A stretch of DNA of 54,561 bases from assembly GCF_003334785.1 (NCBI RefSeq), contig NZ_QOWV01000022.1; one strand, 5' to 3'. Below are positions 18,744 to 42,681 of this stretch, one piece after another. Every line of letters starts with the position of its first letter. The stretch's first letter is position 1. The notes below the pieces were generated by a model. It saw only the letters and a list, made by a program, of their open reading frames with translations. It searched no databases and was not told the origin of the DNA. The position numbers were made by a program, and so were the translations under genes. Source of the DNA: Escherichia coli. GTDB lineage: Bacteria; Pseudomonadota; Gammaproteobacteria; Enterobacterales; Enterobacteriaceae.

Positions 18744-18830
18744 GCCCGGATGGTGGAATCGGTAGACACAAGGGATTTAAAATCCCTCGGCGTTCGCGCT
18801 GTGTGGGTTCAAGTCCCACTCCGGGTACCA
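18744..18830 (+). tRNA. leuZ: tRNA-Leu (UAA), long variable arm
   Basis: GCCCGGATGGTGGAATCGGTAGACACAAGGGATTTAAAATCCC...GGGTTCAAGTCCCACTCCGGGTACCA; the T-stem differs from the K-12 sequence as I recall it by two compensatory changes. Confidence 0.85.
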
Positions 18831-18871
18831 TGGGAAACATCAGAATAATCAAAGCAATAAGCAGTGTCGTG

Positions 18872-18896
18872 AAACCACCTCCGGGTGGTTTTTTTG
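18872..18896 (+). terminator. Rho-independent terminator of the tRNA operon
   Basis: AAACCACC-tccg-GGTGGTTT followed by TTTTT. Confidence 0.7.
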
Positions 18897-19072
18897 TGCC
18901 TGAAATTCATGTCCTGTGCATATCCTGTGCGCACGGGGTGCGATGAGCTGCAATCTTCAGCCTGGCAATGCCGAATCGAACGTGTCGCTTCCAGCATAGA
19001 GAACCAGGCCGCTTTGCCTGTTTTCCGGTACGCTTCCGGGAAGGGGGGGCCCGCTGAGCAAGCTGTAATGCT

Positions 19073-19813
19073 CTAGCCACCCTGAGTACAAAGTTGCTTA
19101 ATTCGTGCAATCACCTCATCTCTGTACTTCTGGTGTCCGCGCATAGCCCGTGGATGGGCAATTCTGAAACAGATTGCATTACCTGTTTTGAACTCCCATA
19201 GCTTCCCCGGAATGACTGAAGAAGTCTCATAACCGCCTAGCTCAGTAAGCACCTGTTTTATGATGTAGTCTGTTCTCCGGGCTCCAGATGCAAAGATGAT
19301 GAAATCAGGCTCAAGGTGTTTAATTTGTACCGCCAGTAGCTTCAGCGAGGCTAATATAACTTCCTGCACTTCATTTTGAGGGCGATTGAGAGGGGTCAGT
19401 CCGTCGTAATCCCACGCCAGTAGATTGGCATACACGATAGCCTGGGGAGGAATATTAAGCTCCCGGGCCAGTCTGAAATGATATTGCGTGAAGCGGCTAC
19501 GTGATTTGAGGTTGGCGGTGCCATAATTTTGTACCGGAAGATGTTTCCTGTAACGATCTACAGCTTCTTCAACCACTTGCCCGATGGTGACGTCAGGTAT
19601 AAGTCCCAACACCCGTGATATCGTATTCTTACCATTCAGCGTATTCCAGCCTGCGGTTTCACGTCCAACCAGCATGATTTTTACCGGTGAATGCCAGTAT
19701 TCTTCAAAGGGTACGGGTAAAAATACGCCTGAGTATTTATCCTCATTCAGGTTAAATGACTGGGCGTTAACTTCCTGCAATATCCGTTTGTACGCGTCTA
19801 ATAGCTTTTCCAT
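19073..19813 (-). CDS. Uracil-DNA-glycosylase-like superfamily protein (pipolin-type UDG candidate)
   Basis: 246 aa; KIMLVGRETAGW resembles the UDG family-4 motif A (GE.PG) and IAHPRAM a C-terminal HP motif; lies between tRNA-Leu and the integrase. Fold assignment is my inference. Confidence 0.45.
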   Translation of the reverse strand: MEKLLDAYKRILQEVNAQSFNLNEDKYSGVFLPVPFEEYWHSPVKIMLVGRETAGWNTLNGKNTISRVLGLIPDVTIGQVVEEAVDRYRKHLPVQNYGTANLKSRSRFTQYHFRLARELNIPPQAIVYANLLAWDYDGLTPLNRPQNEVQEVILASLKLLAVQIKHLEPDFIIFASGARRTDYIIKQVLTELGGYETSSVIPGKLWEFKTGNAICFRIAHPRAMRGHQKYRDEVIARIKQLCTQGG

Positions 19814-19893
19814 TCTTCAATACTGCCCCGTAATAAAAACACCTTCAGATATATATTATCTCCATGATATCAATCAGATACATGAGGATAAAT

Positions 19894-21111
19894 ATGCAAA
19901 AATCCTTCCGATTCACCAATTCATCCATCAAAGCCCTTCCGGCAAACACAGATACCCGATCTACAGAGCTAGAGGTATCTGATACCGAAGTTATTGGCCT
20001 CAAATGTCTCTCAGGTCGAACGGGTAACAAACGTTTCCTCCTGCGCTACACATTCCACGGTACCAAAAAAAGTATCAGTATTGGCAGATTCCCTGAAATT
20101 GATGTGGGGACAGCTCGCCAGATAGCTCGCCGTCATAAGGAGGCGATTGCACTTGGAAATGACCCCAAGGCAGAGCGCGATAATTATCGTGCGATGCCAA
20201 CGCTTAGTGAGTTTTTTCACCAGACCTATGTTCCGTTCATCAAGCGCCATAAAAAGTCCTGGGATAAGGATGTTCAGCGTTTCACGCAATACATTGAACC
20301 TCGTCTGGGAAAGATACGTTACTGCGATCTCAGGGCCAGAGAGATACAACAGGTGCTGTTTGACATGCTGGAGGGGCGTATTCACGGGCAGCAATATGCG
20401 CCGTCTACCTGTAACAGAGCCCTTGCTATTCTGAAAACGATGGGGCGTTATGCGTTGCGACAGGATGTGCTGGAAAAGAATGAAGCCGATAAGATCCCTT
20501 TACTGAAAGAGAATAATCAGCGGACGCGCTTTTTTGATGCTGATGAGATCAGGCGCATTCTTGACGCTGCTACCCAATATCCCAACAAAGCTGCCGGGGG
20601 ATTGATAGCCATGTTGTTGTTAACCGGTACACGCAAATCAGAAATGCTTAATGTCAGGCATGAACATATCGACCGGGCCAATCGTACTCTGTTCATTCCT
20701 TATACAAAAAATGGTCGCAGTCGGACGGTATATCTAAGCGATGCCGCATTATCGATTATTGATGCTATCCCACGAGTTGGCAGTAATCCGTATCTGTTCG
20801 CCATTAAGGATAATGGAAAACCGATATCGGAACCCCGGTGGGCATATGAAAAAATACTGGCACAGTGCGGTATAGACAAGAATGAAGTCTGTTTTCACAC
20901 CACACGTCATTCTGTTGCCTCTTTACTGGTTTCGAGTGGTCAATTCAGCCTGTATGACGTTAAAGCACAACTGGCGCATGCGAGTATTCAAAGTACGGAG
21001 CGCTACGCGAAATTGACACCAGAGCGTATGCGTCAGACCGGGCAGGGCGTAACTGACCTTCTTTTGAACACCGTTACTGCCGGTAACAATGATGATTTTA
21101 GCACCCCTTGA
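19894..21111 (+). CDS. Tyrosine recombinase / integrase (P4-like, N-terminal Arm-type domain)
   Basis: Start at MQKSFRF preceded by GAGGA. C-terminal catalytic region has HTTRHSVAS (His-x-x-Arg) and a Tyr in ERYAKL. Same orientation as and just downstream of tRNA-Leu. Confidence 0.85.
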   Translation: MQKSFRFTNSSIKALPANTDTRSTELEVSDTEVIGLKCLSGRTGNKRFLLRYTFHGTKKSISIGRFPEIDVGTARQIARRHKEAIALGNDPKAERDNYRAMPTLSEFFHQTYVPFIKRHKKSWDKDVQRFTQYIEPRLGKIRYCDLRAREIQQVLFDMLEGRIHGQQYAPSTCNRALAILKTMGRYALRQDVLEKNEADKIPLLKENNQRTRFFDADEIRRILDAATQYPNKAAGGLIAMLLLTGTRKSEMLNVRHEHIDRANRTLFIPYTKNGRSRTVYLSDAALSIIDAIPRVGSNPYLFAIKDNGKPISEPRWAYEKILAQCGIDKNEVCFHTTRHSVASLLVSSGQFSLYDVKAQLAHASIQSTERYAKLTPERMRQTGQGVTDLLLNTVTAGNNDDFSTP

Positions 21112-21120
21112 ACGTGGAGT

Positions 21121-21378
21121 ATGAGTATGCCGTTAAAATGTCCTAAGTGTGGTAGCCGAAATACAGTGACAGAAACTGCCGGAAATATAGCAAAGGTGAC
21201 TCGCGATGACCGGTTTCTGACATCGACATCCGGTTATATTAGCCCGGAGCAATTACCAGAATTGCTTAAAGAAATCATCAGGGCGATACAACGTCTCTTT
21301 AGATTCCTTGAACAGCGTGAAAGGAATAATGCGCCAGTGCTGATCTGCAAGGATTGTGGATATTATGAAAGAATATAG
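21121..21378 (+). CDS. Small zinc-ribbon protein (CxxC..CxxC)
   Basis: 85 aa with CPKCGS near the N-terminus and CKDCGY near the C-terminus; GGAG ribosome-binding site upstream. Confidence 0.5.
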   Translation: MSMPLKCPKCGSRNTVTETAGNIAKVTRDDRFLTSTSGYISPEQLPELLKEIIRAIQRLFRFLEQRERNNAPVLICKDCGYYERI

Positions 21379-21471
21379 ATGACCACTGAAGGCAATTCCA
21401 GATTCTTTAGCCTGTCTATGTAACCCCGATACTTAAAACGTATCGGGTTTTTTGTTTATGAGGATTATTCA

Positions 21472-21843
21472 ATGAAATTTGTCTCGAACTGGCAAGACCT
21501 GCCGTCGCTCCTTCTTCCGGAGTCAGTAATGAGTCTGTTGAAAACAGAGCTGGTACTCCCATTTGAAGATGAATACTCTGCAATGAGTTTCTGGGATGAA
21601 GTCGGGGTGACATTAATATATGTCGAGCCCGATGATGTACCTGAAGATATTAAAACGCAGGTATTAAATGTGATTCATCAGTTAATTGCAAATCCAGAAT
21701 TTGTAGTCCGTCTGACAGATGACTATTACCTGATGCTTTCTGTTACGGAAGATAACGGGAACGGTATTTATCTGTTATTTCACCCCGATTGCCCTCTGAA
21801 GGGTATTGATTTATTAATTTCTATGGCCGAATCACGCTATTAA
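21472..21843 (+). CDS. Hypothetical protein (123 aa)
   Basis: ORF with GAGGA ribosome-binding site 7 nt upstream; no motif recognised. Confidence 0.5.
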   Translation: MKFVSNWQDLPSLLLPESVMSLLKTELVLPFEDEYSAMSFWDEVGVTLIYVEPDDVPEDIKTQVLNVIHQLIANPEFVVRLTDDYYLMLSVTEDNGNGIYLLFHPDCPLKGIDLLISMAESRY

Positions 21844-21868
21844 ACACAAGCAAAACCAGGAACGCAAA

Positions 21869-22402
21869 ATGAGTAAATCAAAATTAGTTAAAAATAATGT
21901 TGAGTCAGTTTCGAAGGAGATTAAAAATGAGGCAGAGGTTATTCATGAAAATCTCAGTGCAGATGAACAAACATTATCTGATGTAAAAGACTATCAGTTG
22001 CTCATTGAAACAGGCCAGGCAGAAAAAATCAGTCCTAAGGCAAGTGGTATGCTGACATGGCAACTGGCGATATCAGAGGTGGACAATGAACTTTATCTTC
22101 GTCTGGTGGCAAATGGCTGTGGAGGGTTGTTCTCTAAGGACTGGATCTCACTTTCAAAGATTGCAACTGTTCTGGAAACACAACCTGCTACCGGCTTCTC
22201 ATCCGGAGTATTCAGGCCGCTATTCAAAGGGGCAAGCGCCAACAATGCAGGTTTTCTGGCTGCAGTTTTACGCTCCCCGGATATATGTCTGCTGGAGGCA
22301 CATCCAGAGAAGTTATTTACTCATGTATTATACCCGGACTGGAGGGAGCGGTTGAATAAACTTAATACGATCAGTAGCCAGGAAAAGATTACAGAGGATT
22401 AA
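21869..22402 (+). CDS. Hypothetical protein (177 aa)
   Basis: ORF in tandem with its neighbours on the same strand; no motif recognised. Confidence 0.5.
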   Translation: MSKSKLVKNNVESVSKEIKNEAEVIHENLSADEQTLSDVKDYQLLIETGQAEKISPKASGMLTWQLAISEVDNELYLRLVANGCGGLFSKDWISLSKIATVLETQPATGFSSGVFRPLFKGASANNAGFLAAVLRSPDICLLEAHPEKLFTHVLYPDWRERLNKLNTISSQEKITED

Positions 22403-22474
22403 TTTATTTCCTGCACTGTTATACAACCAGAAATCACCACACACCACTATTTACTTTCTAAAGGAAAATTTATT

Positions 22475-22909
22475 ATGCAAACCCAATATGCCTTAAAACA
22501 GGCAGGATTAACTCTGCCTGTGACTAAAGAATTTCAGCAGCATATTACTACGCTTCTGGCAAATCAGGTTTTACAAAAAATAACTGAGGCAGTGGTTATT
22601 AATTTCCGTGATCCGGACTACAGTGCAGAATCCGGCGGATTTCATCCGGTTGAAATGCGGTTTATCCGTCAGGATAACGAATGGTATTTCGATTATGTCA
22701 CAGACTTTAGTTACATGGGACGAGTCTACCCGGAACTGGAAAAGGAAATGGACTTTTGTTGGTCAGGTCAATACGTCTTCCATTATCTGATTGGGGATAT
22801 TTCACTGGCAGCAGAGAGGAATGAACTCTGGTCCCTGTGGGAGCGTAATTTTATGGAGTATCTCTCTATGGGGATTTACCGGGTAACGGTAACTGTGGAA
22901 AGTTGTTGA
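22475..22909 (+). CDS. Hypothetical protein (144 aa)
   Basis: ORF with AAGGAAA ribosome-binding site; no motif assigned with confidence. Confidence 0.5.
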   Translation: MQTQYALKQAGLTLPVTKEFQQHITTLLANQVLQKITEAVVINFRDPDYSAESGGFHPVEMRFIRQDNEWYFDYVTDFSYMGRVYPELEKEMDFCWSGQYVFHYLIGDISLAAERNELWSLWERNFMEYLSMGIYRVTVTVESC

Positions 22910-23081
22910 CCCGTTATGAACAGGAAGAAAGCGGACGGCTTTGTAATCTACTGCATGTGGCGTGCATCACAGCATGGAGATGATGTCTCTTTTTCCTGGC
23001 TGTTCGCATAAACAAGTGCAGACACGGGGGATCTCAGATCCCTCGTGGTTTTTGCCCCCTATGGAGCATTCTCCTGTAGCA

Positions 23082-23125
23082 GGGTGATAACGGTTAATCC
23101 ATTACCCCAACGACAGTATTACACC
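23082..23125 (+). repeat. Copy 1 of a roughly 45-bp direct repeat (core ATTACCCCAACGRCAGTWTTACACC)
   Basis: Core matches 33888..33912 at 23 of 25 positions, and GGGTGATA lies at identical spacing upstream in both copies. Confidence 0.7.
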
Positions 23126-23210
23126 GGTAATAAATGTTTATGAATACAGTCAGTTATGTGGGTTTTGAGGTGGGCTATATCATCGTTGACGATAACTGAA
23201 GGTTTTACAG

Positions 23211-23438
23211 ATGTATAAAACTCGCGGTGAAAGGATAGCAGAAAGGCTGTGCTGGATATTACTTCAACTGTATACCGGTAATACGGTATCGGTTAATGAT
23301 ATATGTCAGCGTTTCGCGGTCAGTCGCCGAACCGGACAGCGTGATTTGTTGAGAGTTGAAACTGTAACGGAAACTATTTCACCTGGAAGGGTAAGGCTGG
23401 CAAGTTTGATAAGGGAACGAGTTAGACGAAATTTTTAA
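23211..23438 (+). CDS. Small HTH protein resembling the N-terminal DNA-binding domain of WYL-type regulators (possibly a truncated remnant)
   Basis: 75 aa; ERIAERLCWILLQLYTGNTVSVNDICQRFAVSRRTGQRDL parallels the N-terminus of the WYL regulator at 24400..25302; no WYL domain follows. Confidence 0.4.
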   Translation: MYKTRGERIAERLCWILLQLYTGNTVSVNDICQRFAVSRRTGQRDLLRVETVTETISPGRVRLASLIRERVRRNF

Positions 23439-23519
23439 TCGAATCCATATCAATTCTATAAAATATGAAACTTAACGGGAGTAAATATATACTCCCGTTA
23501 TAATGCAACCTTTTTTTAA

Positions 23520-24338
23520 CTACTCAAATGATATTAATTTAGGTACGACAGTGTTTTTATGATGTGTTGAATTTGCAAGATTAATAATATCATGAAATGA
23601 TTTCATGTCGTCGTCAGTGATTTCTACGGCTGGATCAGCTAAATCGGCACAGGTAACATTTAACCAGTGTGTTAATGAATCAATCCTGTTTGAAGTAATA
23701 TATTCAGTGTGACCAACATTCCACTTCCAGTTGATTATCCGAGCAGGTCTGAATCTCACCTCCCGAACCCCAATTGGTGTTACTGACTCAACGAGAGGGT
23801 ATATCGTGTTAAGTACTTTATCATGTTCACTGTAGATATTTAAATGCCCCATTTTTGAACCGTAAGCCATTTTCATTATGTTCTCTGTATAACTTGTTAT
23901 TGGGGTGGCTCCGGCCATAGAGATTGTTAAGAGAATATTATCATTTTTAATATAGGGTAATGTATTGTTTATTAATCGAGTCCCTAAAGAATGACCCATT
24001 ATGATCACATTACGCTTTTCTTTAACGTATATCTCGTTTATTACGTGTGCTAATTTTTCTCTGTTATTAACTGCTGCTTTCGTTGCATTATACCAGGCCT
24101 GACGCGCTTTAAATGGGATGGAGATTGATGACAATAAAGGAGATGTTCTCAGGGGGAAGAGAGTATATAACCCCCACTTGTTCGCTATGTCAGAACTTAA
24201 TATGGATAGTAGATTTGCCGATTCCCATTTATAGTATCTGACATCAAGGCCACACCCTGCTTTAATTCGGTTAAACCATGATATATCATTTTCGGTCAGA
24301 AACCCTGATACAACAAGAAGAACCGGGCATTTTTTCAT
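23520..24338 (-). CDS. Alpha/beta-hydrolase-like protein with GHSLG nucleophile-elbow motif (lipase/esterase-like)
   Basis: 272 aa, AT-rich; VIIMGHSLGTR fits the GxSxG serine-hydrolase motif; immediately downstream of and co-oriented with the WYL regulator. Confidence 0.55.
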   Translation of the reverse strand: MKKCPVLLVVSGFLTENDISWFNRIKAGCGLDVRYYKWESANLLSILSSDIANKWGLYTLFPLRTSPLLSSISIPFKARQAWYNATKAAVNNREKLAHVINEIYVKEKRNVIIMGHSLGTRLINNTLPYIKNDNILLTISMAGATPITSYTENIMKMAYGSKMGHLNIYSEHDKVLNTIYPLVESVTPIGVREVRFRPARIINWKWNVGHTEYITSNRIDSLTHWLNVTCADLADPAVEITDDDMKSFHDIINLANSTHHKNTVVPKLISFE

Positions 24339-24399
24339 GGTAACTCCATTTTTTAGCTTACAAAAATAGCACTTAATGAAAATTATATTATCCGTGTCA

Positions 24400-25302
24400 T
24401 TACGGGGCGTTACTTGGCTGGGTGTAACGTTTCAGTGCGGATTGTATATCTTCAGCAAGTTGTTGACGGATTGAGGCCGGTTGTATTACTTCGACATCCG
24501 GTATCCAGTATTTCATTAAAGGCATTATCTGATCTGTGTGTGTTACACGTGATATCACCAGTAAATCGCCAGACCGGGAAGTATGAATTATTTCCTGTCC
24601 TGGCAATAGATGACGGTGGGTAAACCACGGAGCAACATGTGCGGAAACTGAAATAAGAACTTCGATAAGGTCTTCGCTATACCAGATACCATCTGTCTTT
24701 TCTATTTTTTCATTAATTTCGGGGATTATCCTGAAAGAGATATTACTCATGCAAACGTCTTTGACAGATGAGATAACAAAGCTTTTTAATGTACTGTCAT
24801 GGGCGGCAGCGAGATACCACAATCCGTTGTCATTAACCAGTCTGTATGGCTCAACAGCCCGAAACTCTTTATCTTTGTAATTAAAATTTACTTTCTTCTG
24901 TGACAGGATGGCATAGGATAATACATTCAGAATTGACATGAATGATCCGCAGTTTTCGTATGGACGTTGTTTTATCAGAAACGGGTTGTTTTTCGTGTTA
25001 CCTAACAAAATACTCAGTAGTCTGTCATCCCAGCGAGGGAACAGCCCTTCAATGCCCAGGATGCGCGTGAAATGACGTAAATCAGCATTGCTGCGTTGAC
25101 CGAGAACACCGTCAGACAGGCGATAGCGACCATTTTGTCGAATCAGATTAAGATAGGACAGGCGCTGAGTAAGATCACGACGGATAGTTTTTTCGCAAAC
25201 GTTAAATTCCTCAGATAACTCCCGGACGGCTAGTGACTCACCATTGTTCAGGCGAGTTAATATCAATCCGAGTCGATATCCAAGTTTATCGTGCTTACCC
25301 AT
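24400..25302 (-). CDS. WYL-domain transcriptional regulator (HTH + WYL)
   Basis: 300 aa; N-terminal HTH ([21 protein letters not shown]) and a central literal WYL motif ([12 protein letters not shown]). Confidence 0.75.
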
Positions 25303-26056: not shown

Positions 26057-28657
26057 TCAGACTGGAAGACAGAATGTCGGATATTTACGGGCTATGATAT
26101 CCATCAGTGACTTCATTCGCGGTGTTACAGAACTAAATTTCATTTGGGGTATTTTTGCTCTTACCGCATTTTTTACATCAGTCACCGTTACTGAATAGCC
26201 TTCTGACGTCAGCCATTCAGCAACCTCTTTACAGGAATAACTTTTTTTATCTTTCAGCATAAGCCCCCATTGGCACTGAGTCAGCGCCCGGAGAAATAGT
26301 CTGACTAAAATATCATCACTACGTTTGCTTCCGACTTTTAGTTTCATATCAGAAAATACCGTCCGGCAATAGAGAAAATCACACCAGTCATCCCAGTCAG
26401 CCAGGGTCTTCAGTGTATGCGTTTGCCGCCAGTCGTCGAAAAGAGAGCGTTGCTGCAGAGCCTCTTCCATATTATCCCATGGGCGGGAAGACATCAGTAA
26501 ATGCCCTTCATTCATGGCGGGCTGTACGGGCTGGCGTTTGAAATCGAATTCCAGATTAAGACGGATATCCTGTTCCCGGGATACCAGATCGCTTTCCGAC
26601 AGCCACATCTCACGCGTTGATATCAACGTACTTCGGGATAACGTCTGACCGGGTAAACGATTAAGGTAAAGATCTACCATATAGTCGTTATAGTCACTGC
26701 GTGGAATATCGGCAGGAGGTTTGACGCCAGCCCTGGCATGAACAACAGGTTTTCCCTGAATAGCTCTATAGGTTAACTGCCCCCGGGTTTTCATGGCGAT
26801 AAGCTGGCTGACCTCATGCTTACATGTCAACATTGATGAACCCGGATCAACAATATCGCACAGCGACTGGAAGCGGGAAGACAGTGGACCGCTCATGTTT
26901 ATCTTGTTAAGTGGGCAATTTGTCAAAAAGCCATCGGTTGTGACGCTGACAACCGATGAATCAGAAGGCAAAGCATTCATGAGTTCCCCGGCAACGGCGC
27001 GGATAAATCCCGTCACATGCGCAGCAAAGAATGGCTGAGTAACCGATGATGGTGGGAGGGATCTGTTTAATCCACGGGCAGTATCAAAGGCGGTTTTGGC
27101 GCGAAGGCCCTGAGCAAGTTTGCCATAAAGCGAGTTGCCAATTTCTTTCCAGAATTTCTCCTCCAGAGAACCTTTAATATGGCGATTACGGTTCTCACGG
27201 ACCTGTTGAACAAAGGGAAGAAACACCGATGTTGATTCGCTGTTATGTGGGGAGGTGTCACAGATCCAGGGGACGATGATCCCATTATGGATCGTCATCT
27301 CTGCCCCGAGCGACAGAGCAAGTTCGATTTCAGGTGCCGTTGCCCATGATTCGCCACTTAATGGAAAGAATAACCCATATTGATCGGTCCGAACCGGCAG
27401 GCTGGGATAGGGAACTGATTCCGGGAACCGAAATGTGACAAGCGCAAATCCCATCACATGCCCACAGTAATCGTCCGGATTTTTACTGAGGCGGATGTTT
27501 CCGTAATCGGGTATGAGGATATCTAATAGCCCGGTGGTATACGCTCCAGCCAGATCGTAGTCATACCAGTGATCAGACGGTGTAACCCCCATCATAAAAC
27601 ACTCATTGCGTCCGCCGTGGTAACAGTTGATCGGGAACGTTTCAAACAGCTCTCTTGAAGGAACACTGGCGGGGTTTTTAATCGTCCGGAATGCCTGTTT
27701 CTCCGTGAGCCAGAGTTCACGGGTTTTAATGTGTGTCCCAAGGCAGACTTCGGGAGACATATTGTTTTCTTTAAGTGTTTTGGTGAACCGTGAAACTGCC
27801 ATCGCCCCGATGGTGGCGGGGACACGATCAATCATCAGCTCCCGGGCGCAAAAATTGCGAACCTGTAAAGCATAACGAACCGCAATCTCGGCATCCCGCA
27901 GAGCATAGGCTTCAAACCCTGCTCTGTCCCCCAGAAGATATTCACGCATATTGGTTATGGAATAAGGTGCAGGAATGGTGAGTTTGGGAAGACCCAGTAA
28001 TTCACCACATTCAGCCAGACCCATACCCCCGGGAGTGATAAGCAGTGTATCGATGAAAGCTACGTTACTGCAACGCGGAGGGGAAGTTCGTTTGTCAAAC
28101 ATTATCTGTTCAGTCTTTACGCGACGTTCCTGCTGTTCATCAAAATCGATACCGTAACGATTTTTGAAGCTGCTGACAGTACCGCGTATTCCTTTCAGAA
28201 GAATTTTGTAGTCTGACCAGAAATTGGCAAAGGAGGCGATATCCGCACGAATGAAATGCGCATATATATTAATAATACCGGGCCATTTTGTAATCACACC
28301 CGTTTCAAGAAGCGGTGTAATCGTTTGACAGAGAAAGTCCTTAAAAGACAGCCGGGATTTTTTCTGTGAGTCAGGTGGATAGATAATGTTCGATATACCT
28401 GTATTATCGGGTAAGACAACATAACTCTGATATGACAGAATATCATTCTGTCGTGTTTCAGGGTTGAAAACATATTCGGTATCAAAACCGATATGGAGCG
28501 TCAGGTCGTTTGAAATCACAGACACGTTTTTTGATGCAGGTGGCATCACAGGATAATCATCAAGCGTTTTAGGTCTTTTACGATTGAGCGCTGGCTCTGA
28601 AGTCACGGACTGATACCCCGAGGCGGCAGCGAGGATATCCTGCAAATTATGGCTCAT
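26057..28657 (-). CDS. Family B DNA polymerase, primer-independent type (piPolB-like), with 3'-5' exonuclease domain
   Basis: Start at MSHNLQD (GGAG upstream). Exo I-like FDTEYV, candidate motif A region YDYDLAGAYTTG, motif B KEIGNSLYGK (Kx3NSxYG) and motif-C-like VTTDGF. Assignment from motif recognition, not a search. Confidence 0.7.
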   Translation of the reverse strand: MSHNLQDILAAASGYQSVTSEPALNRKRPKTLDDYPVMPPASKNVSVISNDLTLHIGFDTEYVFNPETRQNDILSYQSYVVLPDNTGISNIIYPPDSQKKSRLSFKDFLCQTITPLLETGVITKWPGIINIYAHFIRADIASFANFWSDYKILLKGIRGTVSSFKNRYGIDFDEQQERRVKTEQIMFDKRTSPPRCSNVAFIDTLLITPGGMGLAECGELLGLPKLTIPAPYSITNMREYLLGDRAGFEAYALRDAEIAVRYALQVRNFCARELMIDRVPATIGAMAVSRFTKTLKENNMSPEVCLGTHIKTRELWLTEKQAFRTIKNPASVPSRELFETFPINCYHGGRNECFMMGVTPSDHWYDYDLAGAYTTGLLDILIPDYGNIRLSKNPDDYCGHVMGFALVTFRFPESVPYPSLPVRTDQYGLFFPLSGESWATAPEIELALSLGAEMTIHNGIIVPWICDTSPHNSESTSVFLPFVQQVRENRNRHIKGSLEEKFWKEIGNSLYGKLAQGLRAKTAFDTARGLNRSLPPSSVTQPFFAAHVTGFIRAVAGELMNALPSDSSVVSVTTDGFLTNCPLNKINMSGPLSSRFQSLCDIVDPGSSMLTCKHEVSQLIAMKTRGQLTYRAIQGKPVVHARAGVKPPADIPRSDYNDYMVDLYLNRLPGQTLSRSTLISTREMWLSESDLVSREQDIRLNLEFDFKRQPVQPAMNEGHLLMSSRPWDNMEEALQQRSLFDDWRQTHTLKTLADWDDWCDFLYCRTVFSDMKLKVGSKRSDDILVRLFLRALTQCQWGLMLKDKKSYSCKEVAEWLTSEGYSVTVTDVKNAVRAKIPQMKFSSVTPRMKSLMDIIARKYPTFCLPV

Positions 28658-28703
28658 AGTTAACTCCGAAAAAATGCCGGGAGCTGTGTCCCGGCATAAA
28701 GAA

Positions 28704-29342
28704 TCAAGATTTAATAACATTTACTACAGATTTGAAAATATCGGTTTTGCGTGATTCATCATCTGCATGGATAAATGAAACGAGGTTCCTGCCTGCTTTA
28801 ATCAGGATGCCACGTTGCGTCTTTTCCACAGATGGGGTGACGCGTGCAGATAACAGACAATTTTCATGTAACTGAAGAAACTTTTTTGAGGCGTAGCCGC
28901 CATGCAGTCGGGCTTTAATTTCATTATACATATCATCAAGAGAACCGGGTTCTCCTGATTCACTCAATACCGGATAGCCCTTCTTATCAAAAAGGCTGAG
29001 GATAGATTTACCATCATGTTCGAACAAGGTAACACCGTAAATGTATTTCATTCGAAAGGTGAGGGCGTCGGTGGTGTAGATCTCCTCCTGACAACTGAAA
29101 TTTTTGAGACGCCTGGCTAATTCATTAAAAACAGCACGAGCAGTAGCCGTGTCCTGCAGGGTGTAGGTATAAAGTACGAAGCCATCTGTGCCGATGAGCT
29201 TTACTAAGTTGTCCATAATCGTGATAGCGAGAACTAATGCAAAGGACAGATATTTTTCATCGTTGTCTACAGCTGTGCTTGCTGATTCGGGAATAATGTT
29301 CAGTGCATTATTAGCGTTATTTTCCGTGTTCTTAGTAACCAT
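28704..29342 (-). CDS. Hypothetical protein (212 aa) in an operon with the excisionase-like gene and the polymerase
   Basis: ORF between the Xis-like gene and the polymerase, same strand, short gaps. Confidence 0.5.
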   Translation of the reverse strand: MVTKNTENNANNALNIIPESASTAVDNDEKYLSFALVLAITIMDNLVKLIGTDGFVLYTYTLQDTATARAVFNELARRLKNFSCQEEIYTTDALTFRMKYIYGVTLFEHDGKSILSLFDKKGYPVLSESGEPGSLDDMYNEIKARLHGGYASKKFLQLHENCLLSARVTPSVEKTQRGILIKAGRNLVSFIHADDESRKTDIFKSVVNVIKS

Positions 29343-29674: not shown

Positions 29675-30811
29675 TCATAGGTTCATTTTTGTGTCATAAC
29701 TTTCTATGACCTGAGAAACCACTGCGTGTGATGTCGCTGCATTGTGAAAAGCGTAGCGACGGGTCGCCGTGAGTGAATGGTGATTTAGCAGATGGGAAGC
29801 GATTGCAATATCCCCGGTCGCCTGTAGTATCCGGGTGGCAAAGGTACGGCGCAGGTCATGCATCCGCAGGTTATCAATGTTGGCATCCCGACAAATACGG
29901 GCAAAGGTTGCACGCGGATATGCCAGAGGGCGGGCATTGTCGGTTAGTTGTGGAAAAATGTAAGTTTTGCTGAGCATCAGGTCCTGCTGGCACTGGACAA
30001 CTGCAATGGCTGGAGGTGCAAGTGGGCAGGTGAAAGGGTGTCCGGACTTTGTATCAGGCAGTATGAGTTGATGCATATCCGGGTGCCAGTACTCCCATTT
30101 CAGGGTACATACCTCACCAATACGCATCCCCGTATAAAGAGCAAGCAATATAGAATCAGCTGCCGGTGTTTGCAGCGCTGTTGCCGCGTCAATAAAGCGC
30201 GGGATTTCTGTCGCTGACAGCGTGCGATAGCGAATGTTATTTTCTTTCAGATAGCGGACATGTGACATCGGGGAATGTGTGATCCATCCAGCACGTACTG
30301 CCAGAGAGCATATTTTGGACAATATTGCGAGGATTCGGTTTACTGTTGACGGACGTAATTTTTCCCGTAAGCCAGCAGCATATTGTTCCAGTTCTCCTGC
30401 CGTGATGTCGCGAAGTTGCCGCTTGCCCCAGAACGGGCGAACGTAGAGGTTGAGTTTTGACAACTCTGACTGAGGACTCTTTTTATACAACTGCAAATCC
30501 GGTAGCCACAGGTCATTGATGGCCTGTTCCACAGTGAATCGACGGGACTGAACCGCAAGACGATTTTTATCAGCAAGCAGTTTCATCACATGCTGACGGG
30601 CATCCTCAACGCAGAGCTGAGGGAACTGACCCAGGGTTTCATATATACGCTGATTGTTTATAGTGGCACGAAAGGCCAGCGTGATCCGATTGGGATACAC
30701 CAGAGCACGCAGGTTTTGGCAGTGAATATCACGGTATTCCTGACAACCCGTGAGGGGATGTGGAAGTTGGTGAATTGATTTGTTGCTGAAACGCAGATCC
30801 AGAATAGGCAT
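29675..30811 (-). CDS. Tyrosine recombinase (XerC/phage-integrase family), second recombinase of the element
   Basis: 378 aa; catalytic-domain motifs RIGEVCTLKW, HDLRRTFATR, and a Tyr in TRRYAFH. Confidence 0.8.
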   Translation of the reverse strand: MPILDLRFSNKSIHQLPHPLTGCQEYRDIHCQNLRALVYPNRITLAFRATINNQRIYETLGQFPQLCVEDARQHVMKLLADKNRLAVQSRRFTVEQAINDLWLPDLQLYKKSPQSELSKLNLYVRPFWGKRQLRDITAGELEQYAAGLREKLRPSTVNRILAILSKICSLAVRAGWITHSPMSHVRYLKENNIRYRTLSATEIPRFIDAATALQTPAADSILLALYTGMRIGEVCTLKWEYWHPDMHQLILPDTKSGHPFTCPLAPPAIAVVQCQQDLMLSKTYIFPQLTDNARPLAYPRATFARICRDANIDNLRMHDLRRTFATRILQATGDIAIASHLLNHHSLTATRRYAFHNAATSHAVVSQVIESYDTKMNL

Positions 30812-34130: not shown

Positions 34131-35654
34131 ATGAACGACAAAATCAGTCAGGACACGATCAACAAAGCCCTGTGGGCCGCGTGTGATACGTTCCGTGGCA
34201 CCATCAGTGCTGATACCTATAAAGACTTTATCCTTACCATGCTGTTCCTCAAGTACATTTCAGATGTCTGGCAGGATCACTATGACGAATACAAAGAACA
34301 GTATGGCGATGCGCCGGAACTGATTGAAGCGATGATGGCCAACGAGCGTTTTGTACTGCCAAAAAGTGCCAGCTTTTATGCGCTGTACGAACGCCGCCAT
34401 GAGCCGGGTAACGGTGAGCGTATCGATCAGGCTCTGCATGCAATCGAAGAAGCCAACGGAACCAAACTGAAAGATGCCGGGAAAAGCGTGTTCCAGGATA
34501 TTTCGTTTAACACTGACCGCTTGGGTGAAGAAAAACAGAAGAACACCATCCTGCGTCAGTTGCTGGAAGACTTCGCCGGTGAAGATCTCAACCTGAAGCC
34601 AAGCCGTGTAGGTACGCTGGACGTTATCGGTAATGCCTACGAATATCTGATCAAAAACTTTGCCGCCAGCGGTGGGCAGAAAGCCGGGGAGTTCTATACC
34701 CCGCCGGAAGTTTCGGACCTGATTGCAGAACTGCTCGATCCGCAACCGGGTGATACCATCTGCGATCCAGCCTGTGGTTCCGGTTCATTATTGATGAAGT
34801 GTGGGCGTAAAATTGTCTCCGGGCATGATAGTCGTAACTATGCATTGTTCGGTCAGGAAGCGATCGGTTCTACGTGGTCGCTGGCGAAAATGAATATGTT
34901 CCTGCACGGGGAAGACAACCATAAAATCGAGTGGGGCGATACCATTCGTAACCCGAAGCTGCTCGATAAAAATGGCGACCTGATGCTGTTTGATATCGTG
35001 ACCGCTAACCCACCGTTCAGCCTCGATAAGTGGGGCCATGACGAGGCCGAGAACGATAAGTTTGGCCGTTTTCGTCGCGGTGTACCGCCGAAGACTAAAG
35101 GAGATTACGCTTTTATCTCGCATATGATCGAAACCCTGAAACCGGGAACTGGCCGTATGGGCGTAGTTGTGCCACACGGTGTGCTTTTCCGTGGCTCCAG
35201 CGAAGGTAAAATTCGCCAGAAACTGATCGACGAAAATTTGCTGGATGCGGTAATTGGTCTGCCGGAAAAACTGTTCTACGGTACGGGGATTCCGGCTGCG
35301 ATTCTGATTTTCAAAAAGCAGAAAGTTGATGACAAGGTGCTGTTTATCGATGCCAGCCGTGAATTCAAGGCAGGTAAAAACCAGAACCAGCTCAGCGCAG
35401 AAAACATCGAGAAAATCGTCAAGACCTACCGTGATGGCGATAACGTCGAGAAATACGCCTATCTTGCCAGCCTGAAAGAGATTCAGGACAACGATTACAA
35501 CCTTAATATTCCACGTTATGTTGATACTTTCGAGGAAGAAGACGAGATTGATTTACTGGTCGTGCGTGCTGAACGTGAGCAACTGAAGGTGGAACTGGCG
35601 AATCTGGAAACGGAGATGGCGGGTTATCTGAAGGAGTTGGGTTATGGTGCCTAA
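34131..35654 (+). CDS. hsdM: Type I restriction-modification system methyltransferase subunit
   Basis: 507 aa; AdoMet-binding DPACGSGSLL and catalytic NPPF (TANPPFS) of N6-adenine methyltransferases; followed by hsdS. Confidence 0.9.
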   Translation: MNDKISQDTINKALWAACDTFRGTISADTYKDFILTMLFLKYISDVWQDHYDEYKEQYGDAPELIEAMMANERFVLPKSASFYALYERRHEPGNGERIDQALHAIEEANGTKLKDAGKSVFQDISFNTDRLGEEKQKNTILRQLLEDFAGEDLNLKPSRVGTLDVIGNAYEYLIKNFAASGGQKAGEFYTPPEVSDLIAELLDPQPGDTICDPACGSGSLLMKCGRKIVSGHDSRNYALFGQEAIGSTWSLAKMNMFLHGEDNHKIEWGDTIRNPKLLDKNGDLMLFDIVTANPPFSLDKWGHDEAENDKFGRFRRGVPPKTKGDYAFISHMIETLKPGTGRMGVVVPHGVLFRGSSEGKIRQKLIDENLLDAVIGLPEKLFYGTGIPAAILIFKKQKVDDKVLFIDASREFKAGKNQNQLSAENIEKIVKTYRDGDNVEKYAYLASLKEIQDNDYNLNIPRYVDTFEEEDEIDLLVVRAEREQLKVELANLETEMAGYLKELGYGA

Positions 35655-36837
35655 GGGGTGGAGTGAAAGTTATCTTGGTGAAGTGGTTACATATAAAAAA
35701 GGCTATGCATTTAATTCATCATTATATGCAGAGGAAGGGATACGGATTGTTCGAATTTCGGACACAACTAGGGACTCCATCCATTCTGACAACCCTGTTT
35801 TTATTGCTGGCGGGAATGTCGAAGGTTTAGAGCAATACAGTCTTTTCGAAAACGATATAATACTCTCTACTGTGGGATCTCGACCACATTTACTGGACTC
35901 CATGGTTGGTAAAGCTGTAAAGGTTCCGCGCAGTGCACATAATAGCTTGCTTAATCAGAATCTTGTTAAACTCATACCGAAGAAAACAAAAATAACAAAT
36001 GAGTATCTTTTTAGCATGCTTAAAACAAAGGAATTTATACAATTCATCTCAAACTTGGTTCGTGGTAATGCAAACCAAGTCTCTATAACTTTGGCTGATC
36101 TTTTTAAATATAAATTCATCTTACCTTCCCTCCCCGAACAAAAGAAAATCGCCCAAATCCTGTCAACCTGGGATAAGGCGATTTCGGTGACGGAAAAGCT
36201 TCTCACCAACAGTCAGCAGCAGAAAAAAGCCCTGATGCAGCAATTACTTACCGGGAAGAAACGGTTGCTGGATGAGAATGGGGTGAGGTTTATCAAAAAA
36301 TGGGAAAAAACCACTTTAGGGGATATCGCAAAAATCACAACAGGTAGCTCTAATAGACAGGATTCAAGCTTGGATGGAAAGTATACTTTCTTTGACCGTT
36401 CTGAGGATATTAGAACTAGCAGTATTTATCTATTTGATGGAGAGGCAATTATAGTTCCTGGAGAAGGGCAGAGATTTGAACCAAAGTATTTCATTGGTAA
36501 ATTCGATCTTCACCAAAGAACCTACGCCATAATGGATTTTGCAAGCCATTCTGGGAGGTTTCTTTTCTACATGATTGATTATCTTAAAGTTTATTTTCTT
36601 AACCAAGCTGTGGGGTCAACTGTAAAGTCTTTACGACTTCCAATGTTTCAAAAAATGACCTTTGAAGCACCGGAAATTGAAGAACAACAAAAAATCGCCG
36701 CCGTCCTCTCCGCTGCCGATGCAGAAATCTCCACACTGGAGAAAAAACTCGCCTGCCTGAAGGGTGAGAAAAAAGCCCTGATGCAACAGCTGCTGACCGG
36801 TAAGCGTCGGGTGGTTGTTGATGTGGATGCCGCGTAA
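35644..36837 (+). CDS. hsdS: Type I restriction-modification system specificity subunit
   Basis: 397 aa; two target-recognition halves separated and followed by the conserved repeats KKALMQQLLTGKKRL and KKALMQQLLTGKRRV; start overlaps the hsdM end. Confidence 0.85.
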   Translation: MVPKGWSESYLGEVVTYKKGYAFNSSLYAEEGIRIVRISDTTRDSIHSDNPVFIAGGNVEGLEQYSLFENDIILSTVGSRPHLLDSMVGKAVKVPRSAHNSLLNQNLVKLIPKKTKITNEYLFSMLKTKEFIQFISNLVRGNANQVSITLADLFKYKFILPSLPEQKKIAQILSTWDKAISVTEKLLTNSQQQKKALMQQLLTGKKRLLDENGVRFIKKWEKTTLGDIAKITTGSSNRQDSSLDGKYTFFDRSEDIRTSSIYLFDGEAIIVPGEGQRFEPKYFIGKFDLHQRTYAIMDFASHSGRFLFYMIDYLKVYFLNQAVGSTVKSLRLPMFQKMTFEAPEIEEQQKIAAVLSAADAEISTLEKKLACLKGEKKALMQQLLTGKRRVVVDVDAA

Positions 36838-37520
36838 TGAAACTGACCAAAAACGCCCCGCTGACTGAGCGTGAAATCGACTGGCTGGAAGAGGTGCTGA
36901 TGAAGTATGGCAATGATGACTCGGTGCTCTGCTTCTCTGAACTGGATGGCTTTCTGACGGCGATTGTCTCCGGCCCGAATATGATTTCCCCGAATATCTG
37001 GCTCAGTGCCCTTTGGGGGCGGGGTGATTACCACCCTCGCTGGACCACTGAAAAAGAGATGACGCGTTTTGTGGGGCTGTGTTTTCAGCATATGAACGAT
37101 ATCGCTGGCTGCCTGTATGAGGCCCCTGAACAGTTTGAACCGATTTTCAATGGACGTGAGGTGAAGGGGAAGACATATACCATCGTCGAAGAGTGGTGTT
37201 TCGGGTATATGAAAGGCCGGTCTCTGGATGACTGGTCAGCCTTGCCAGAGGCCTTACGTCCCTCGCTGGAGGCGATAGCCCTTCATGGTATCGAAAAGAA
37301 CTTCCCAGTGGTTGAGAAAATGTCACCTGTTCAATTTGAACAGAGTATTACTCTCATTCAGCCTGCGGCACTGGCGCTTTACCAGCACTGGTTGTCGGTG
37401 AGAATGTCAGAGGCATCATCCCGGCCTGTTCCCGTGAAGGGGGCAGAAAAACTGCCCGGTCGTAATGACCCGTGTCAGTGTGGCAGTGGTAAAAAATTTA
37501 AAAAGTGCTGCCTGCACTGA
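36837..37520 (+). CDS. YecA-like protein (UPF0149 domain with C-terminal SEC-C metal-binding motif) embedded in the hsd operon
   Basis: 227 aa; C-terminal GRNDPCQCGSGKKFKKCC is a SEC-C motif; overall resemblance to E. coli YecA as recalled; start shares the hsdS stop (ATGA overlap). Confidence 0.65.
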   Translation: MKLTKNAPLTEREIDWLEEVLMKYGNDDSVLCFSELDGFLTAIVSGPNMISPNIWLSALWGRGDYHPRWTTEKEMTRFVGLCFQHMNDIAGCLYEAPEQFEPIFNGREVKGKTYTIVEEWCFGYMKGRSLDDWSALPEALRPSLEAIALHGIEKNFPVVEKMSPVQFEQSITLIQPAALALYQHWLSVRMSEASSRPVPVKGAEKLPGRNDPCQCGSGKKFKKCCLH

Positions 37521-37542
37521 CAAAGCGGAAGGGGGCTTGCTC

Positions 37543-39327
37543 ATGGCAGTGAACAATCTGGATCGTTCCCGGTGGTACATGGGAAATGTTCTCTGGTTCG
37601 GAGGCTACAACAGCAAAACGGATCGGGAGAATAACTTTGGCTTTCTCTTATCAGAGAATGGTAATGAGCTGTTTTTTCATAAGAATGAGATAAGCCGGAA
37701 CTATACACCCGCTGACAATACACCGGTGCTGTTCAGGGAAGGTACAGGTAAAAATGGTAAGCCTACGGCTTTTAATGTTCACATTCTTGATAAAACAGAT
37801 GAGGAGACGGCTGAGCTCCTTATTGAATATCTCCGGGCTATTATTGAGGAGGGCGTTGATTTCGCTCGTTGGCGTTATCGTGACTGCGTTATTAATTTTC
37901 TCACTCAGTCCTTTGGCGAAAGGGCTATAATTCGGTTAGTTACCAGTGATATAGCTGCTACAAAAGTCTTGCCGCTATTTTTAAAATCACGTAACTACGA
38001 TAACCAGTTTGCACTTTTCGCCTCTGATAAGAATTTTGATGATTTGACCGCACAACAAATATCTCCTGCGGTCATGCCTTCGTCATTTATCGATAATAAC
38101 ATTGATCAGTTCGCTGTTTGGGTGAAAAGGTGTTCTGCGGCTACGGATTGCCAGGGGGCTTCAACATCGGACATCATCAATGAATTACTCAGCCATATAT
38201 CTATAAGTGCTATTCTCTACCTGGCATTTTACGATTGTATAAGCAGCGAGCGGATTCTTGAACATCGGCATGATGATATAGAGAATTTTGTTCGACGTAG
38301 TTTCACGAAAAATAAAATGGATATACAACCATTTGTCCGTGATGCCTATCAGCAGAAATTCTCATCGAGAGAGCAATTTTATAAACATTCCGTGATTAGT
38401 CCTTTTGTCAATAAGTATTTGATTAAACAGAAGATGTTCAGGAAAGATTTCAGTTTTGTTAATGATATTGAGTCGAATACTGAAATTTCTTCTGACCCTG
38501 AATACTTTATTCTGAGTAAATTGTTACCGCTGATTGGGCGTAACGATGAACAGTCCGTTCTGAGTATTATTCTGCATGAGATATGGCAGGGAGTGTTGTC
38601 GGGTAAAATCCCGGTAAGCCATCCTTCTGTTTTCAAATTGTTCCCACAGTGTAGCTCATTGAAAATTCGTTCCCGGAATTTAAAATTATCCTGTGAGGCA
38701 TTTCACTGGAATGCAAAACAACCTGACGGAACGATAGAGAAAAAATTCCTTTGTCGTTCGAAAATCTGCCATGATCCGCAGGTACTGCCCGACCTCAGTC
38801 GGGATTACATCGACTTCACTATTTATGACTGGCTTGCCCACTATGGCATGACCTATCTGATTGCAGGCGAACCTTCTAAGCGGGATTTCCCAATTAAACT
38901 GGCTGGGTATTTCAATCGTATCAGAGAATTACATTCCCGCTTGCATTGCCGAAGTTGTGGGGTGCTGATGGTTCCAGATATGAAATATGCTCGTGTGGAA
39001 GTCAGCGTCTGGGATACAAAGTCGAAAGGATTTGTGAAAAAACCTTTCCAGGCCGCGTATCGCCTGACCGTCTTTAAATGTGCCAGTCATTCGTGCGAAC
39101 AGTTTGGTATCGGGCATTACATTAATCACTGTATTGGTTACAAATGCAGCGAAATAATTGACGCCAGGGATTTGCATGAAAAATGTTCAGAAGGACGATT
39201 TATTTGTGCATCCTGTGGTTCCTGCTGTACGACGCATCAGGAGAAATTTGGTAATGTAAACAAGGGCGAAACAGAACAGGTCAAGTACAATCGCCTTTAT
39301 CGGGACTCGCCGTTCTTTTCATCATAA
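37543..39327 (+). CDS. Cold-shock-domain (OB-fold) protein with large uncharacterised middle region and Cys-rich C-terminus, embedded in the hsd operon
   Basis: Start at MAVNNLD (AAGGGGG upstream). N-terminus GNVLWFGG..NFGFL..ELFFHKNEI..KPTAFNV parallels CspA (GIVKWFN..GFGFI..DVFVHFSAI); C-terminus has several CxxC/CxxxxC clusters. Confidence 0.6.
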   Translation: MAVNNLDRSRWYMGNVLWFGGYNSKTDRENNFGFLLSENGNELFFHKNEISRNYTPADNTPVLFREGTGKNGKPTAFNVHILDKTDEETAELLIEYLRAIIEEGVDFARWRYRDCVINFLTQSFGERAIIRLVTSDIAATKVLPLFLKSRNYDNQFALFASDKNFDDLTAQQISPAVMPSSFIDNNIDQFAVWVKRCSAATDCQGASTSDIINELLSHISISAILYLAFYDCISSERILEHRHDDIENFVRRSFTKNKMDIQPFVRDAYQQKFSSREQFYKHSVISPFVNKYLIKQKMFRKDFSFVNDIESNTEISSDPEYFILSKLLPLIGRNDEQSVLSIILHEIWQGVLSGKIPVSHPSVFKLFPQCSSLKIRSRNLKLSCEAFHWNAKQPDGTIEKKFLCRSKICHDPQVLPDLSRDYIDFTIYDWLAHYGMTYLIAGEPSKRDFPIKLAGYFNRIRELHSRLHCRSCGVLMVPDMKYARVEVSVWDTKSKGFVKKPFQAAYRLTVFKCASHSCEQFGIGHYINHCIGYKCSEIIDARDLHEKCSEGRFICASCGSCCTTHQEKFGNVNKGETEQVKYNRLYRDSPFFSS

Positions 39328-39396
39328 GTCTTCGTTCATTTTGAGTATGTCCGTAAGGACATACAGTTTCACCTCTTAGCCAAGAAGGATTACCGG

Positions 39397-42300: not shown

Positions 42301-42681
42301 AAACAGTATCTCTTGTTCCGTGAATTTGAAGAACAGGTTGAAGCCCGTAAGCTCAGCGATATCCCGGATGCACTGGCGGTAAACAAGCATGCTCAGGCGT
42401 ATTACGGTGTATTTAAAAAAGAGCTACCTGAGGTTTTTGCGGTAAACGACGTTCAGGTGCAGGATAAGTGGACGAAGCTGGCTTTTGAAGTGGACAACAT
42501 TATCGTCAAAGCGGTGGCAGAAAACTCTCTGAACCCCCAGGACATTGAGAAAGTCGTTAAGACAAGTCTGCTACCACTGCTGTTTACGGCCTGCCGGGAA
42601 ATTGGTGCCGGAATGAATCAGGTTAACCGTATTGTGGAAACCATCATCCAGATACTGCGCGTTGGTTTGATGAAATCATGA
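39397..42681 (+). CDS. hsdR: Type I restriction enzyme endonuclease/helicase subunit
   Basis: 1094 aa, GTG start with AAGAAGGA ribosome-binding site; helicase motif I (HTTGSGKS) and motif II (LIDEGHRSQ). Confidence 0.9.
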   Translation: MDKHYQPKFQEEYSAKIPALTLLTSLGWTFLSPKQIMDYRGYKQDEVVLRPVLREELSKRSFMAGGKTCQLSEKALDNLISQVCSPALNEGLLKANERMYNHLLYGIAVTEFVDGKKVNPTIALIDWEHPENNQFHFTEEFTVLRSGGVETRRPDIVCFVNGIPLAVIEAKSPAGHGKKGPTIDEGISQSIRNQLNDEIPQLFAYSQILLSINGHDGRYGTCHTPMKFWAAWREEDITDAQMYALRNHPLSTEQIHALFDHRPSADLNWYQQLIAAGELAVSGQDKLLISLLSPERLLEMTRFFTLFDKKTGKIVARYQQVFGIKRLLERISTRRPDGGREGGVIWHTTGSGKSYTMVFLSKALILHDSLKRCRIVVVTDRIDLEEQLSNTFASGGELAGKKDKANAMATSGQMLAKQIGSGKERIIFTLIQKFNSATKLPECVNTSPDIIVLIDEGHRSQGGENHVRMKLALPNAAFVAFTGTPLLKEDKTTNKFGPIVHAYTMQRAVEDKAVTPLLYEERIPDLEVNDRAIDAWFDRITDGLSEAQKADLKRKYARKGEVYSADDRIRLIALDIATHFSKNIDEGLKGQLACDSKISAIKYKKYLDEAGLFESAVVISPPDTREGNTEVDESKLPEVTKWWKDNVGTQDESVYTRNIISRFDTDEKLKLLIVVDKLLTGFDEPKNTVLYIDKPLKSHNLIQAIARVNRLHPLKKFGLLIDYRGILAELDTTIGKYQDLASRTQGGYDIKDIDGLYSAMSSEYKRLPHLYNQLWAIFAGVKNKNDTEQLRAVLVPKMEERDGEMVDIHQKTRDDFFEALTAFAGCLKVALQSATFFTDKSFTEQDRNLYKETVKQMSSLRQWAMQVSGEQVNYDDYAEQVKKLLDKHVTGVEVREPDGVYEVGKMGKSEKPEEWDNNKTRNETDIIKTRVTKMIEQELRDDPYAQEAFSKLLRMAIEEAEKLFDHPLKQYLLFREFEEQVEARKLSDIPDALAVNKHAQAYYGVFKKELPEVFAVNDVQVQDKWTKLAFEVDNIIVKAVAENSLNPQDIEKVVKTSLLPLLFTACREIGAGMNQVNRIVETIIQILRVGLMKS

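Follow-up and report, generated by a model that had tools for sequence, protein, structure and literature searches.

What is the function of a gene that lies between the tRNA attachment site and the integrase of a mobile element that carries its own DNA polymerase? The question is raised by a stretch of 54,561 nucleotides from Escherichia coli (contig NZ_QOWV01000022.1, hereafter the window), in which a sequence-only reading had placed a 246-aa minus-strand gene at this position, had seen the motifs VGRETAGW and AHPRAM of its product as uracil-DNA glycosylase (UDG)-like, and had proposed the protein as a repair partner of a primer-independent polymerase. The arrangement itself is not new, since a UDG beside the pipolin integrase has already been published: the 2020 survey of E. 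coli pipolins found a type-4 UDG to be "very frequent" and syntenic with the recombinase at the tRNA-Leu att end (Flament-Simon et al. 2020, PMC7385651), ExplorePipolin (2022) colours UDG as a common pipolin feature (PMC9710591), and Mateo-Caceres et al. (2024) name "integrases, DUF2787 and UDG" among the pipolin genes (PMC11551731). Judged by its position, the published type-4 UDG is almost certainly the same gene. These three papers treat it by annotation only and address neither the absence of iron-sulphur ligands nor the family outside pipolins that we describe here, and the pipolin literature that we found holds no experiment on the UDG-like protein.

A pipolin gene between leuZ and the integrase

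The left part of the window is chromosomal and carries uvrY, uvrC and pgsA, followed by tRNA-Gly, tRNA-Cys and tRNA-Leu(taa), while the DNA to the right of tRNA-Leu is an island of lower G+C content. The island matches an annotated island of strain CFSAN061762 that encodes a "DNA polymerase type-B family protein", a gene that is piPolB, the primer-independent PolB of pipolins, and pipolins are known to integrate at the tRNA-Leu of this site (PMC5695915, PMC7385651). The features by which a pipolin is recognised are present, namely piPolB, two tyrosine recombinases and an att repeat overlapping tRNA-Leu (Table 1). The limits of this repeat were defined from CFSAN061762, where a second copy of 130 nt, 94.6% identical, lies at the far island end just upstream of yecA (locus L002, 7319-7448). 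Neither a repeat search nor BLAST found a second copy within the window, because the island here runs past position 54561 and the distal att thus falls outside; the island is longer than in CFSAN061762, and the two sequences diverge after about position 43433.

Table 1 Features of the window and loci of the ADP-ribosyl glycohydrolase in relatives
Feature	Position	Strand	Basis
tRNA-Leu(taa), leuZ; integration target	18744..18830	+	ARAGORN; tRNA-Leu annotation in NZ_CP042901
tRNA-proximal att repeat: 3' part of tRNA-Leu and about 70 nt including the leuZ terminator hairpin	18775..18902		direct repeat in CFSAN061762
UDG-superfamily glycosylase-like gene, 246 aa, ATG start	19073..19813	-	ORF
Motif B equivalent, A219-H220-P221-R-A-M, directly after a beta strand	19142..19159	-	H220, P221 in 69/70; aligned to YHPAA of 4zbx in a significant domain
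N130, candidate base-recognition Asn, C-terminal end of strand beta2	19424..19426	-	N in 68/70; DSSP strand 126-130
Motif A equivalent, V49-G-R-E52-T-A-G-W56, directly after strand beta1	19646..19669	-	G50 70/70, E52 69/70, W56 68/70 in alignment A2
Short AT-rich divergent intergenic region, common to the glycosylase-like gene and the integrase	19814..19894		sequence
Tyrosine recombinase, IntSXT-type integrase of the pipolin core	19864..21111 (RefSeq start equivalent to 19895)	+	PHROG integrase 7.6e-54; annotation 'site-specific integrase'; type named in PMC11551731
Remaining att-proximal core: 85-aa zinc-ribbon-like ORF, two orphan ORFs, DUF2787, DUF726, WYL regulator	21121..25302		core described in PMC11551731
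piPolB, primer-independent family-B DNA polymerase, pipolin hallmark	26057..28720	-	annotation; PHROG DNA polymerase
Second tyrosine recombinase, IntP2 type	29675..30811	-	PHROG integrase; annotation
ADP-ribosyl glycohydrolase in loci of relatives	L039 10765-11877; L041 2145-3386; L042 3144-4385; L063 8376-9605; L065 8361-9605

Given the extent of the att repeat, the 246-aa gene is internal to the element, with 170 nt between it and the end of att, and lies, as the earlier reading had it, on the minus strand between the tRNA attachment site and the integrase. The two genes are transcribed divergently, 50-81 nt apart, and a promoter and terminator scan of the region between them gave no match to the sigma-70 consensus. 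The protein is identical or near-identical to WP_032236380.1, a RefSeq 'hypothetical protein'. Comparison with ten enterobacterial copies yields a dN/dS of 0.10-0.19, the start methionine is common to the homologues, and the view that the ORF is not a gene is ruled out by this ratio together with conservation across genera. Among 5426 complete E. coli genomes, 532 carry the gene, and in 356 the whole stretch from the tRNA through the gene to the integrase is found at a coverage of at least 80%, so that the arrangement is more than chance. A word-indexed search retrieved 186 homologues at E<=1e-3 and an exhaustive search 474 cluster representatives, some of them labelled "Uracil-DNA glycosylase-like domain-containing protein" in UniRef. 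The family is encoded on 29 plasmids and in none of 50,697 phage genomes.

Several other features of the island were recorded. The 85-aa ORF (21121-21378, plus strand) contains two CxxC pairs, starts 10 nt past the integrase stop and is unannotated in the RefSeq record of a near-identical island; it is kept at 65-96% identity in pipolins of E. coli, Enterobacter, Citrobacter, Buttiauxella and Franconibacter. The type I restriction-modification (R-M) operon (hsdM, hsdS, hsdR; 34131-42681) has two extra genes between hsdS and hsdR, one YecA/YgfB-like (36837-37520), the other a 620-aa ORF (37465-39327) that is absent from CFSAN061762 and has as a relative a 594-aa gene, 'cold shock domain-containing protein', in strain M160133. 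The part of the window that departs from CFSAN061762 (43462-53181), beginning after an IS1 fragment (43462-43840), holds two adjacent DUF262 proteins (44088-47577; PADLOC HEC-06/Orf5/SspE-like N-terminal domain) and the 1809-aa anti-phage helicase Hhe (47752-53181; PADLOC Hhe, 4070 bits).

Fold, motifs and family assignment

Taken alone, the 246-aa sequence has no Pfam match even at E<=10, no PDB match by phmmer, a meaningless 14-bit match as its only one in NCBIfam, and the unnamed family phrog_29550 as its only one in PHROG; a profile of 32 sequences likewise found nothing in the PDB. An AlphaFold2 model from 32 homologues (pLDDT 90, pTM 0.89) shows a single alpha/beta/alpha domain with a central parallel beta sheet, as in the UDG superfamily (PF03167 clan), and in a Foldseek search of the PDB all 50 best matches are enzymes of this superfamily, the first being 4ZBY, the family-4 UDG of S. 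tokodaii (E 3.4e-6, TM 0.48/0.57). Vaccinia D4 is also among the structural matches. A profile of 70 sequences, reaching down to about 22% identity (alignment A2), retrieves the S. tokodaii family-4 UDG from the PDB at E 9e-6, with A-H-P-R aligned to the motif-B H-P-A-A, and the Pfam UDG profile run on these 70 relatives matches 29 at E<=0.1 and 3 at E<=1e-3, the query itself having no match.

G50, E52 and W56, N130, and H220 and P221, each kept in 68-70 of the 70 relatives, correspond in position to motif A of UDGs, to the base-reading Asn with which beta2 ends, and to motif B. The alignment of motif A to the VGEAPGE segment of S. tokodaii UDG is sub-threshold in HMMER, and N130 is the probable counterpart of N82 in that enzyme (role of N82: PMC11078745) by its secondary-structure position rather than by alignment or superposition. 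Because fold matches, the 70-sequence profile match and the conserved motif positions agree, we place the protein in the UDG superfamily with high confidence. The two motifs of the earlier reading, which can be read directly at residues 49-56 and 219-224, thus prove to be the family's versions of motifs A and B, and its call of a UDG fold, which an unrelated fold in the structure comparison would have overturned, is borne out, with families 4 and 5 and UdgX as the nearest.

Which member of the superfamily it is can be answered by comparison. By both sequence profile and structure the closest family is family 4 (UDGa; T. maritima 1L9G, T. thermophilus 1UI0, S. tokodaii 4ZBX/4ZBY), whose enzymes have a [4Fe-4S] cluster that the pipolin family lacks: the four Cys of the cluster are absent, only the C215 column is conserved, and the proteins of the close-family alignment A1 contain 1-3 Cys each, with 2 in the query. 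The family-4 motif A, G-E-(A/G)-P-G, here reads G-R-E-T-A-G-W, with the Pro replaced and one extra residue before the Glu; about 50 additional residues separate motif A from beta2, and a distinctive, conserved N-terminal segment, D25-x-Y-S-G-x-F-L-P, is present. Compared with UdgX of M. smegmatis, the protein has neither the Fe-S ligands nor the KRRIH-type loop with the covalent-linking His, and whereas family 5 (UDGb; T. thermophilus 2D3Y) has no polar catalytic residue in motif A, the Glu of the pipolin family is almost invariant. The family is thus a separate, Fe-S-free branch of the superfamily, closest to family 4 and UdgX.

Association with piPolB and the wider family

Within E. coli the link between the glycosylase-like gene and piPolB runs in one direction. 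piPolB is found in 296 of the 5426 genomes. A query spanning the glycosylase-like gene through piPolB matches exactly 532 genomes, the same number as for the gene alone, with the whole stretch intact in 251, and therefore any genome with part of the core, including every piPolB-positive one, has the glycosylase-like gene: all 296 carry it, and at least 236 genomes have it without piPolB. The piPolB-less cases that we inspected (L003, L004, L005) are decayed pipolins at the same site, one with a truncated integrase and foreign genes, one with an IS3 insertion into the glycosylase-like gene and one with an IS1-mediated deletion, and we accordingly rejected the excess of 532 over 296 as a decisive refutation of a link to piPolB. 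In strain 746 the glycosylase-like gene is intact in a decayed island from which both piPolB and the integrase have been lost. As side observations, a common E. coli class that includes many human isolates has the gene cut by IS3 at codon ~214, and pipolin decay at leuZ in E. coli forms a graded series, the att-proximal glycosylase-like gene being retained last.

Copies at 80% identity or more show the tRNA-Leu, gene, IntSXT arrangement, plus piPolB wherever the flank reaches. A "solo" copy in Pectobacterium brasiliense has no integrase and no piPolB and adjoins genes for an Mrr-type and a PD-(D/E)XK nuclease (L059/L060, 11148-13561), whose proteins are 95-97% identical to distal cargo of an E. 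coli pipolin (L002, 2961-5371); this locus resembles the remnant of a pipolin that has collapsed and that is shared between genera, a further reason for not taking the excess of 532 over 296 as decisive. Among Enterobacteriaceae, then, the pipolins have the gene fixed at their att-proximal end, and it tends to remain last as islands decay.

Outside Enterobacteriaceae, copies at 38-61% identity occur in Stutzerimonas, Marinobacter, Pseudoalteromonas, Halomonas, Halopseudomonas, Methylotuvimicrobium, Nitrincola, Salinivibrio, Photobacterium, Proteus and others. We searched 44 loci from species-representative genomes, and further contigs of individual homologues, with the pipolin core proteins of the window, over flanks of up to +/-10 kb. 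None of the 34 sequence-distinct non-enterobacterial loci holds a homologue of the pipolin piPolB, IntSXT, DUF2787 or WYL proteins within these flanks, and no Vibrio or Aeromonas pipolin is among the loci that encode the family. The proposed partnership with the primer-independent polymerase therefore finds no support as a property of the family, the link in E. coli being one-way.

What the relatives do have is a partner of a different kind. In 21 of the 34 loci (25 retrieved loci, some of them repeats) an acidic protein of 109-113 aa is encoded immediately upstream, often overlapping the start codon, and in Marinobacter, Halopseudomonas, a Pseudomonadaceae MAG and abundant marine contigs an ADP-ribosyl glycohydrolase lies directly beside the pair; the E. 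coli copy has neither. These glycohydrolases are homologous, with 50% identity between lineages, and lie upstream of the pair in some loci and downstream in others. Among the neighbours of the relatives are a complete type I Zorya system, BrxR and a WYL regulator; type I R-M systems, accompanied in one case by Mrr and in another by a Dcm-like methyltransferase; a NERD/UvrD-type helicase cluster; and IS elements and integrases. The genes of the relatives make up a conserved module of two or three in surroundings of the defence or mobile type, although such surroundings are not universal, the neighbours of some relatives being ordinary chromosomal genes.

Possible roles of the glycosylase

A precedent for such contexts is provided by three UDG-superfamily enzymes from defence islands, Brig1, Brig2 and Brig3, which protect bacteria by excising modified phage bases. 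Brig2 acts against phages with hypermodified thymidines, and of its homologues, which number more than 500, 41% lie close to defence genes or mobile elements; Brig3 excises 5hmC, and its gene overlaps that of the accessory protein BapA in an operon, with an ADP-ribosyl glycohydrolase gene coming next. Like the pipolin family, the Brigs are divergent members of the superfamily on mobile or defence islands, and since the best structural match of Brig1 is also 4ZBY, a top match to family 4 does not separate repair from defence enzymes. Compared by published description, the module around the relatives of the pipolin gene is strikingly similar to the Brig loci: an ADP-ribosyl glycohydrolase is present at the Brig1 and Brig3 loci and beside some of the relatives, the overlapping two-gene operon of Brig3 and its accessory protein has its likeness in the small overlapping partner, and the proximity to Zorya/BrxR or R-M is a Brig-like setting. 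There are also differences. The Asn position is Glu in Brig1 and Asp in Brig3 and has kept its Asn in the pipolin family; motif A of Brig3, again as described, is N-P-S-x-x-E instead of G-R-E-T-A-G-W; and BapA is a two-barrel ASCH-like protein encoded downstream, but the gene of the 109-aa partner, a small alpha/beta protein, lies upstream, and the E. coli copy has no such partner.

With these likenesses in mind, we lean, tentatively and with slightly less than even confidence, towards an accessory or defence glycosylase of the Brig type, borne by the mobile element and acting on uracil or 5-substituted uracil in foreign DNA. The reality of the gene, its fold, the conservation of its motifs, its distribution and its gene neighbourhoods are shown, while catalysis, substrate class and a part in defence are inferred. 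The protein would be a monofunctional DNA glycosylase of the UDG superfamily. Judged by UDGs of solved structure, motif A (G50-x-E52-T-x-G-W56), N130 as the Asn of beta2 and motif B (H220-P221) would together make the pocket into which a pyrimidine is flipped from the DNA. There, E52 would activate a water molecule, N130 would read a Watson-Crick face of the uracil type and the departing base would be stabilised by H220, resulting in an abasic site. The target may be uracil or a 5-substituted uracil, such as a hypermodified thymine, in invading phage DNA, and the defence enzyme would then have become fixed at the att-proximal end of enterobacterial pipolins. Pipolins are now described as defence islands, and the one in the window carries the type I R-M system, the DUF262 pair and Hhe. 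However, the gene sits in the conserved att-proximal core instead of a variable cargo module and is present in all 296 piPolB-positive E. coli genomes, a pattern as compatible with maintenance as with defence; it has kept the classical Glu/Asn/His set, as expected of a true uracil glycosylase; no PADLOC 2023 model matches the protein; and several relatives have the ordinary chromosomal neighbours noted above.

The view of the earlier reading, which is also implicit in the literature, is that the protein is a genuine UDG serving the replication of the element. It would remove uracil, whether from misincorporated dUMP or from deaminated cytosine, and especially in single-stranded intermediates, from pipolin DNA, and piPolB would tolerate or bypass the abasic sites left behind. 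The strict co-occurrence with piPolB in enterobacterial pipolins speaks for this, as does the published ability of piPolB to bypass abasic sites, but the association with the polymerase is confined to Enterobacteriaceae, with none in the 34 loci beyond them and no Vibrio or Aeromonas pipolin among the carriers, and intact copies outlast piPolB and the integrase in decayed islands such as that of strain 746. A plain repair UDG would, moreover, have no need of the dedicated small partner that accompanies the ancestral form, nor of the ADP-ribosyl glycohydrolase that is often found with it. E. coli also already possesses Ung and Mug. We therefore consider this role unlikely, if the most serious competitor, and the protein is probably not a dedicated repair partner of piPolB.

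One could also speculate that the protein, as a glycosylase or DNA-binding protein, protects the element, whether through excision of adducted bases or through action against a system of the host or of a competitor, and the recurrent ADP-ribosyl glycohydrolase neighbour does suggest the handling of ADP-ribosylated DNA bases. We regard this as improbable: the E. coli copy stands without partner and glycohydrolase, the fold match of the partner is weak, and the study of Brig3 found that defence did not require the glycohydrolase next to it (10.64898/2026.02.25.707755).

More improbable still is a protein without remaining catalytic activity that serves piPolB as a DNA-binding or processivity subunit, as D4 does the vaccinia polymerase, or serves the integrase as an architectural factor at att; the appearance of D4 among the structural matches and the place of the gene beside att, divergent from the integrase across a short spacer, would suit it, but the conservation of E52, N130 and H220 in 68-69 of 70 relatives down to about 22% identity argues for retained chemistry, and most family members have no adjacent integrase or polymerase.

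Returning to the defence glycosylase, a more specific version, which we offer as a conjecture and hold to be rather doubtful, is that the pipolin gene represents the partner-less enterobacterial branch of an unrecognised gammaproteobacterial antiviral system made up of the 109-aa protein, the UDG-fold enzyme and sometimes the ADP-ribosyl glycohydrolase. Because the uracil-type Asn is kept, such a system might, unlike Brig1 and Brig3, excise uracil-derived, hypermodified thymines, and the partner could be an inhibitor, an immunity protein or a specificity factor. If so, the pipolin core would hold a fixed base-excision defence gene beside a polymerase able to bypass abasic sites.

The published annotation is thus to be corrected in that the pipolin protein is not a canonical family-4 UDG but belongs to a separate, Fe-S-free branch of the superfamily, and the resemblance of the relatives' two- or three-gene module, in its defence-type neighbourhoods, to the Brig loci provides a lead to its function. 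If the protein proves to do no more than excise uracil, piPolB replication would gain its first enzymatic accessory. Should it be an antiviral glycosylase, the reading of the pipolin core would change, and base-excision immunity would extend to a common E. coli island, present in about 10% of complete genomes.
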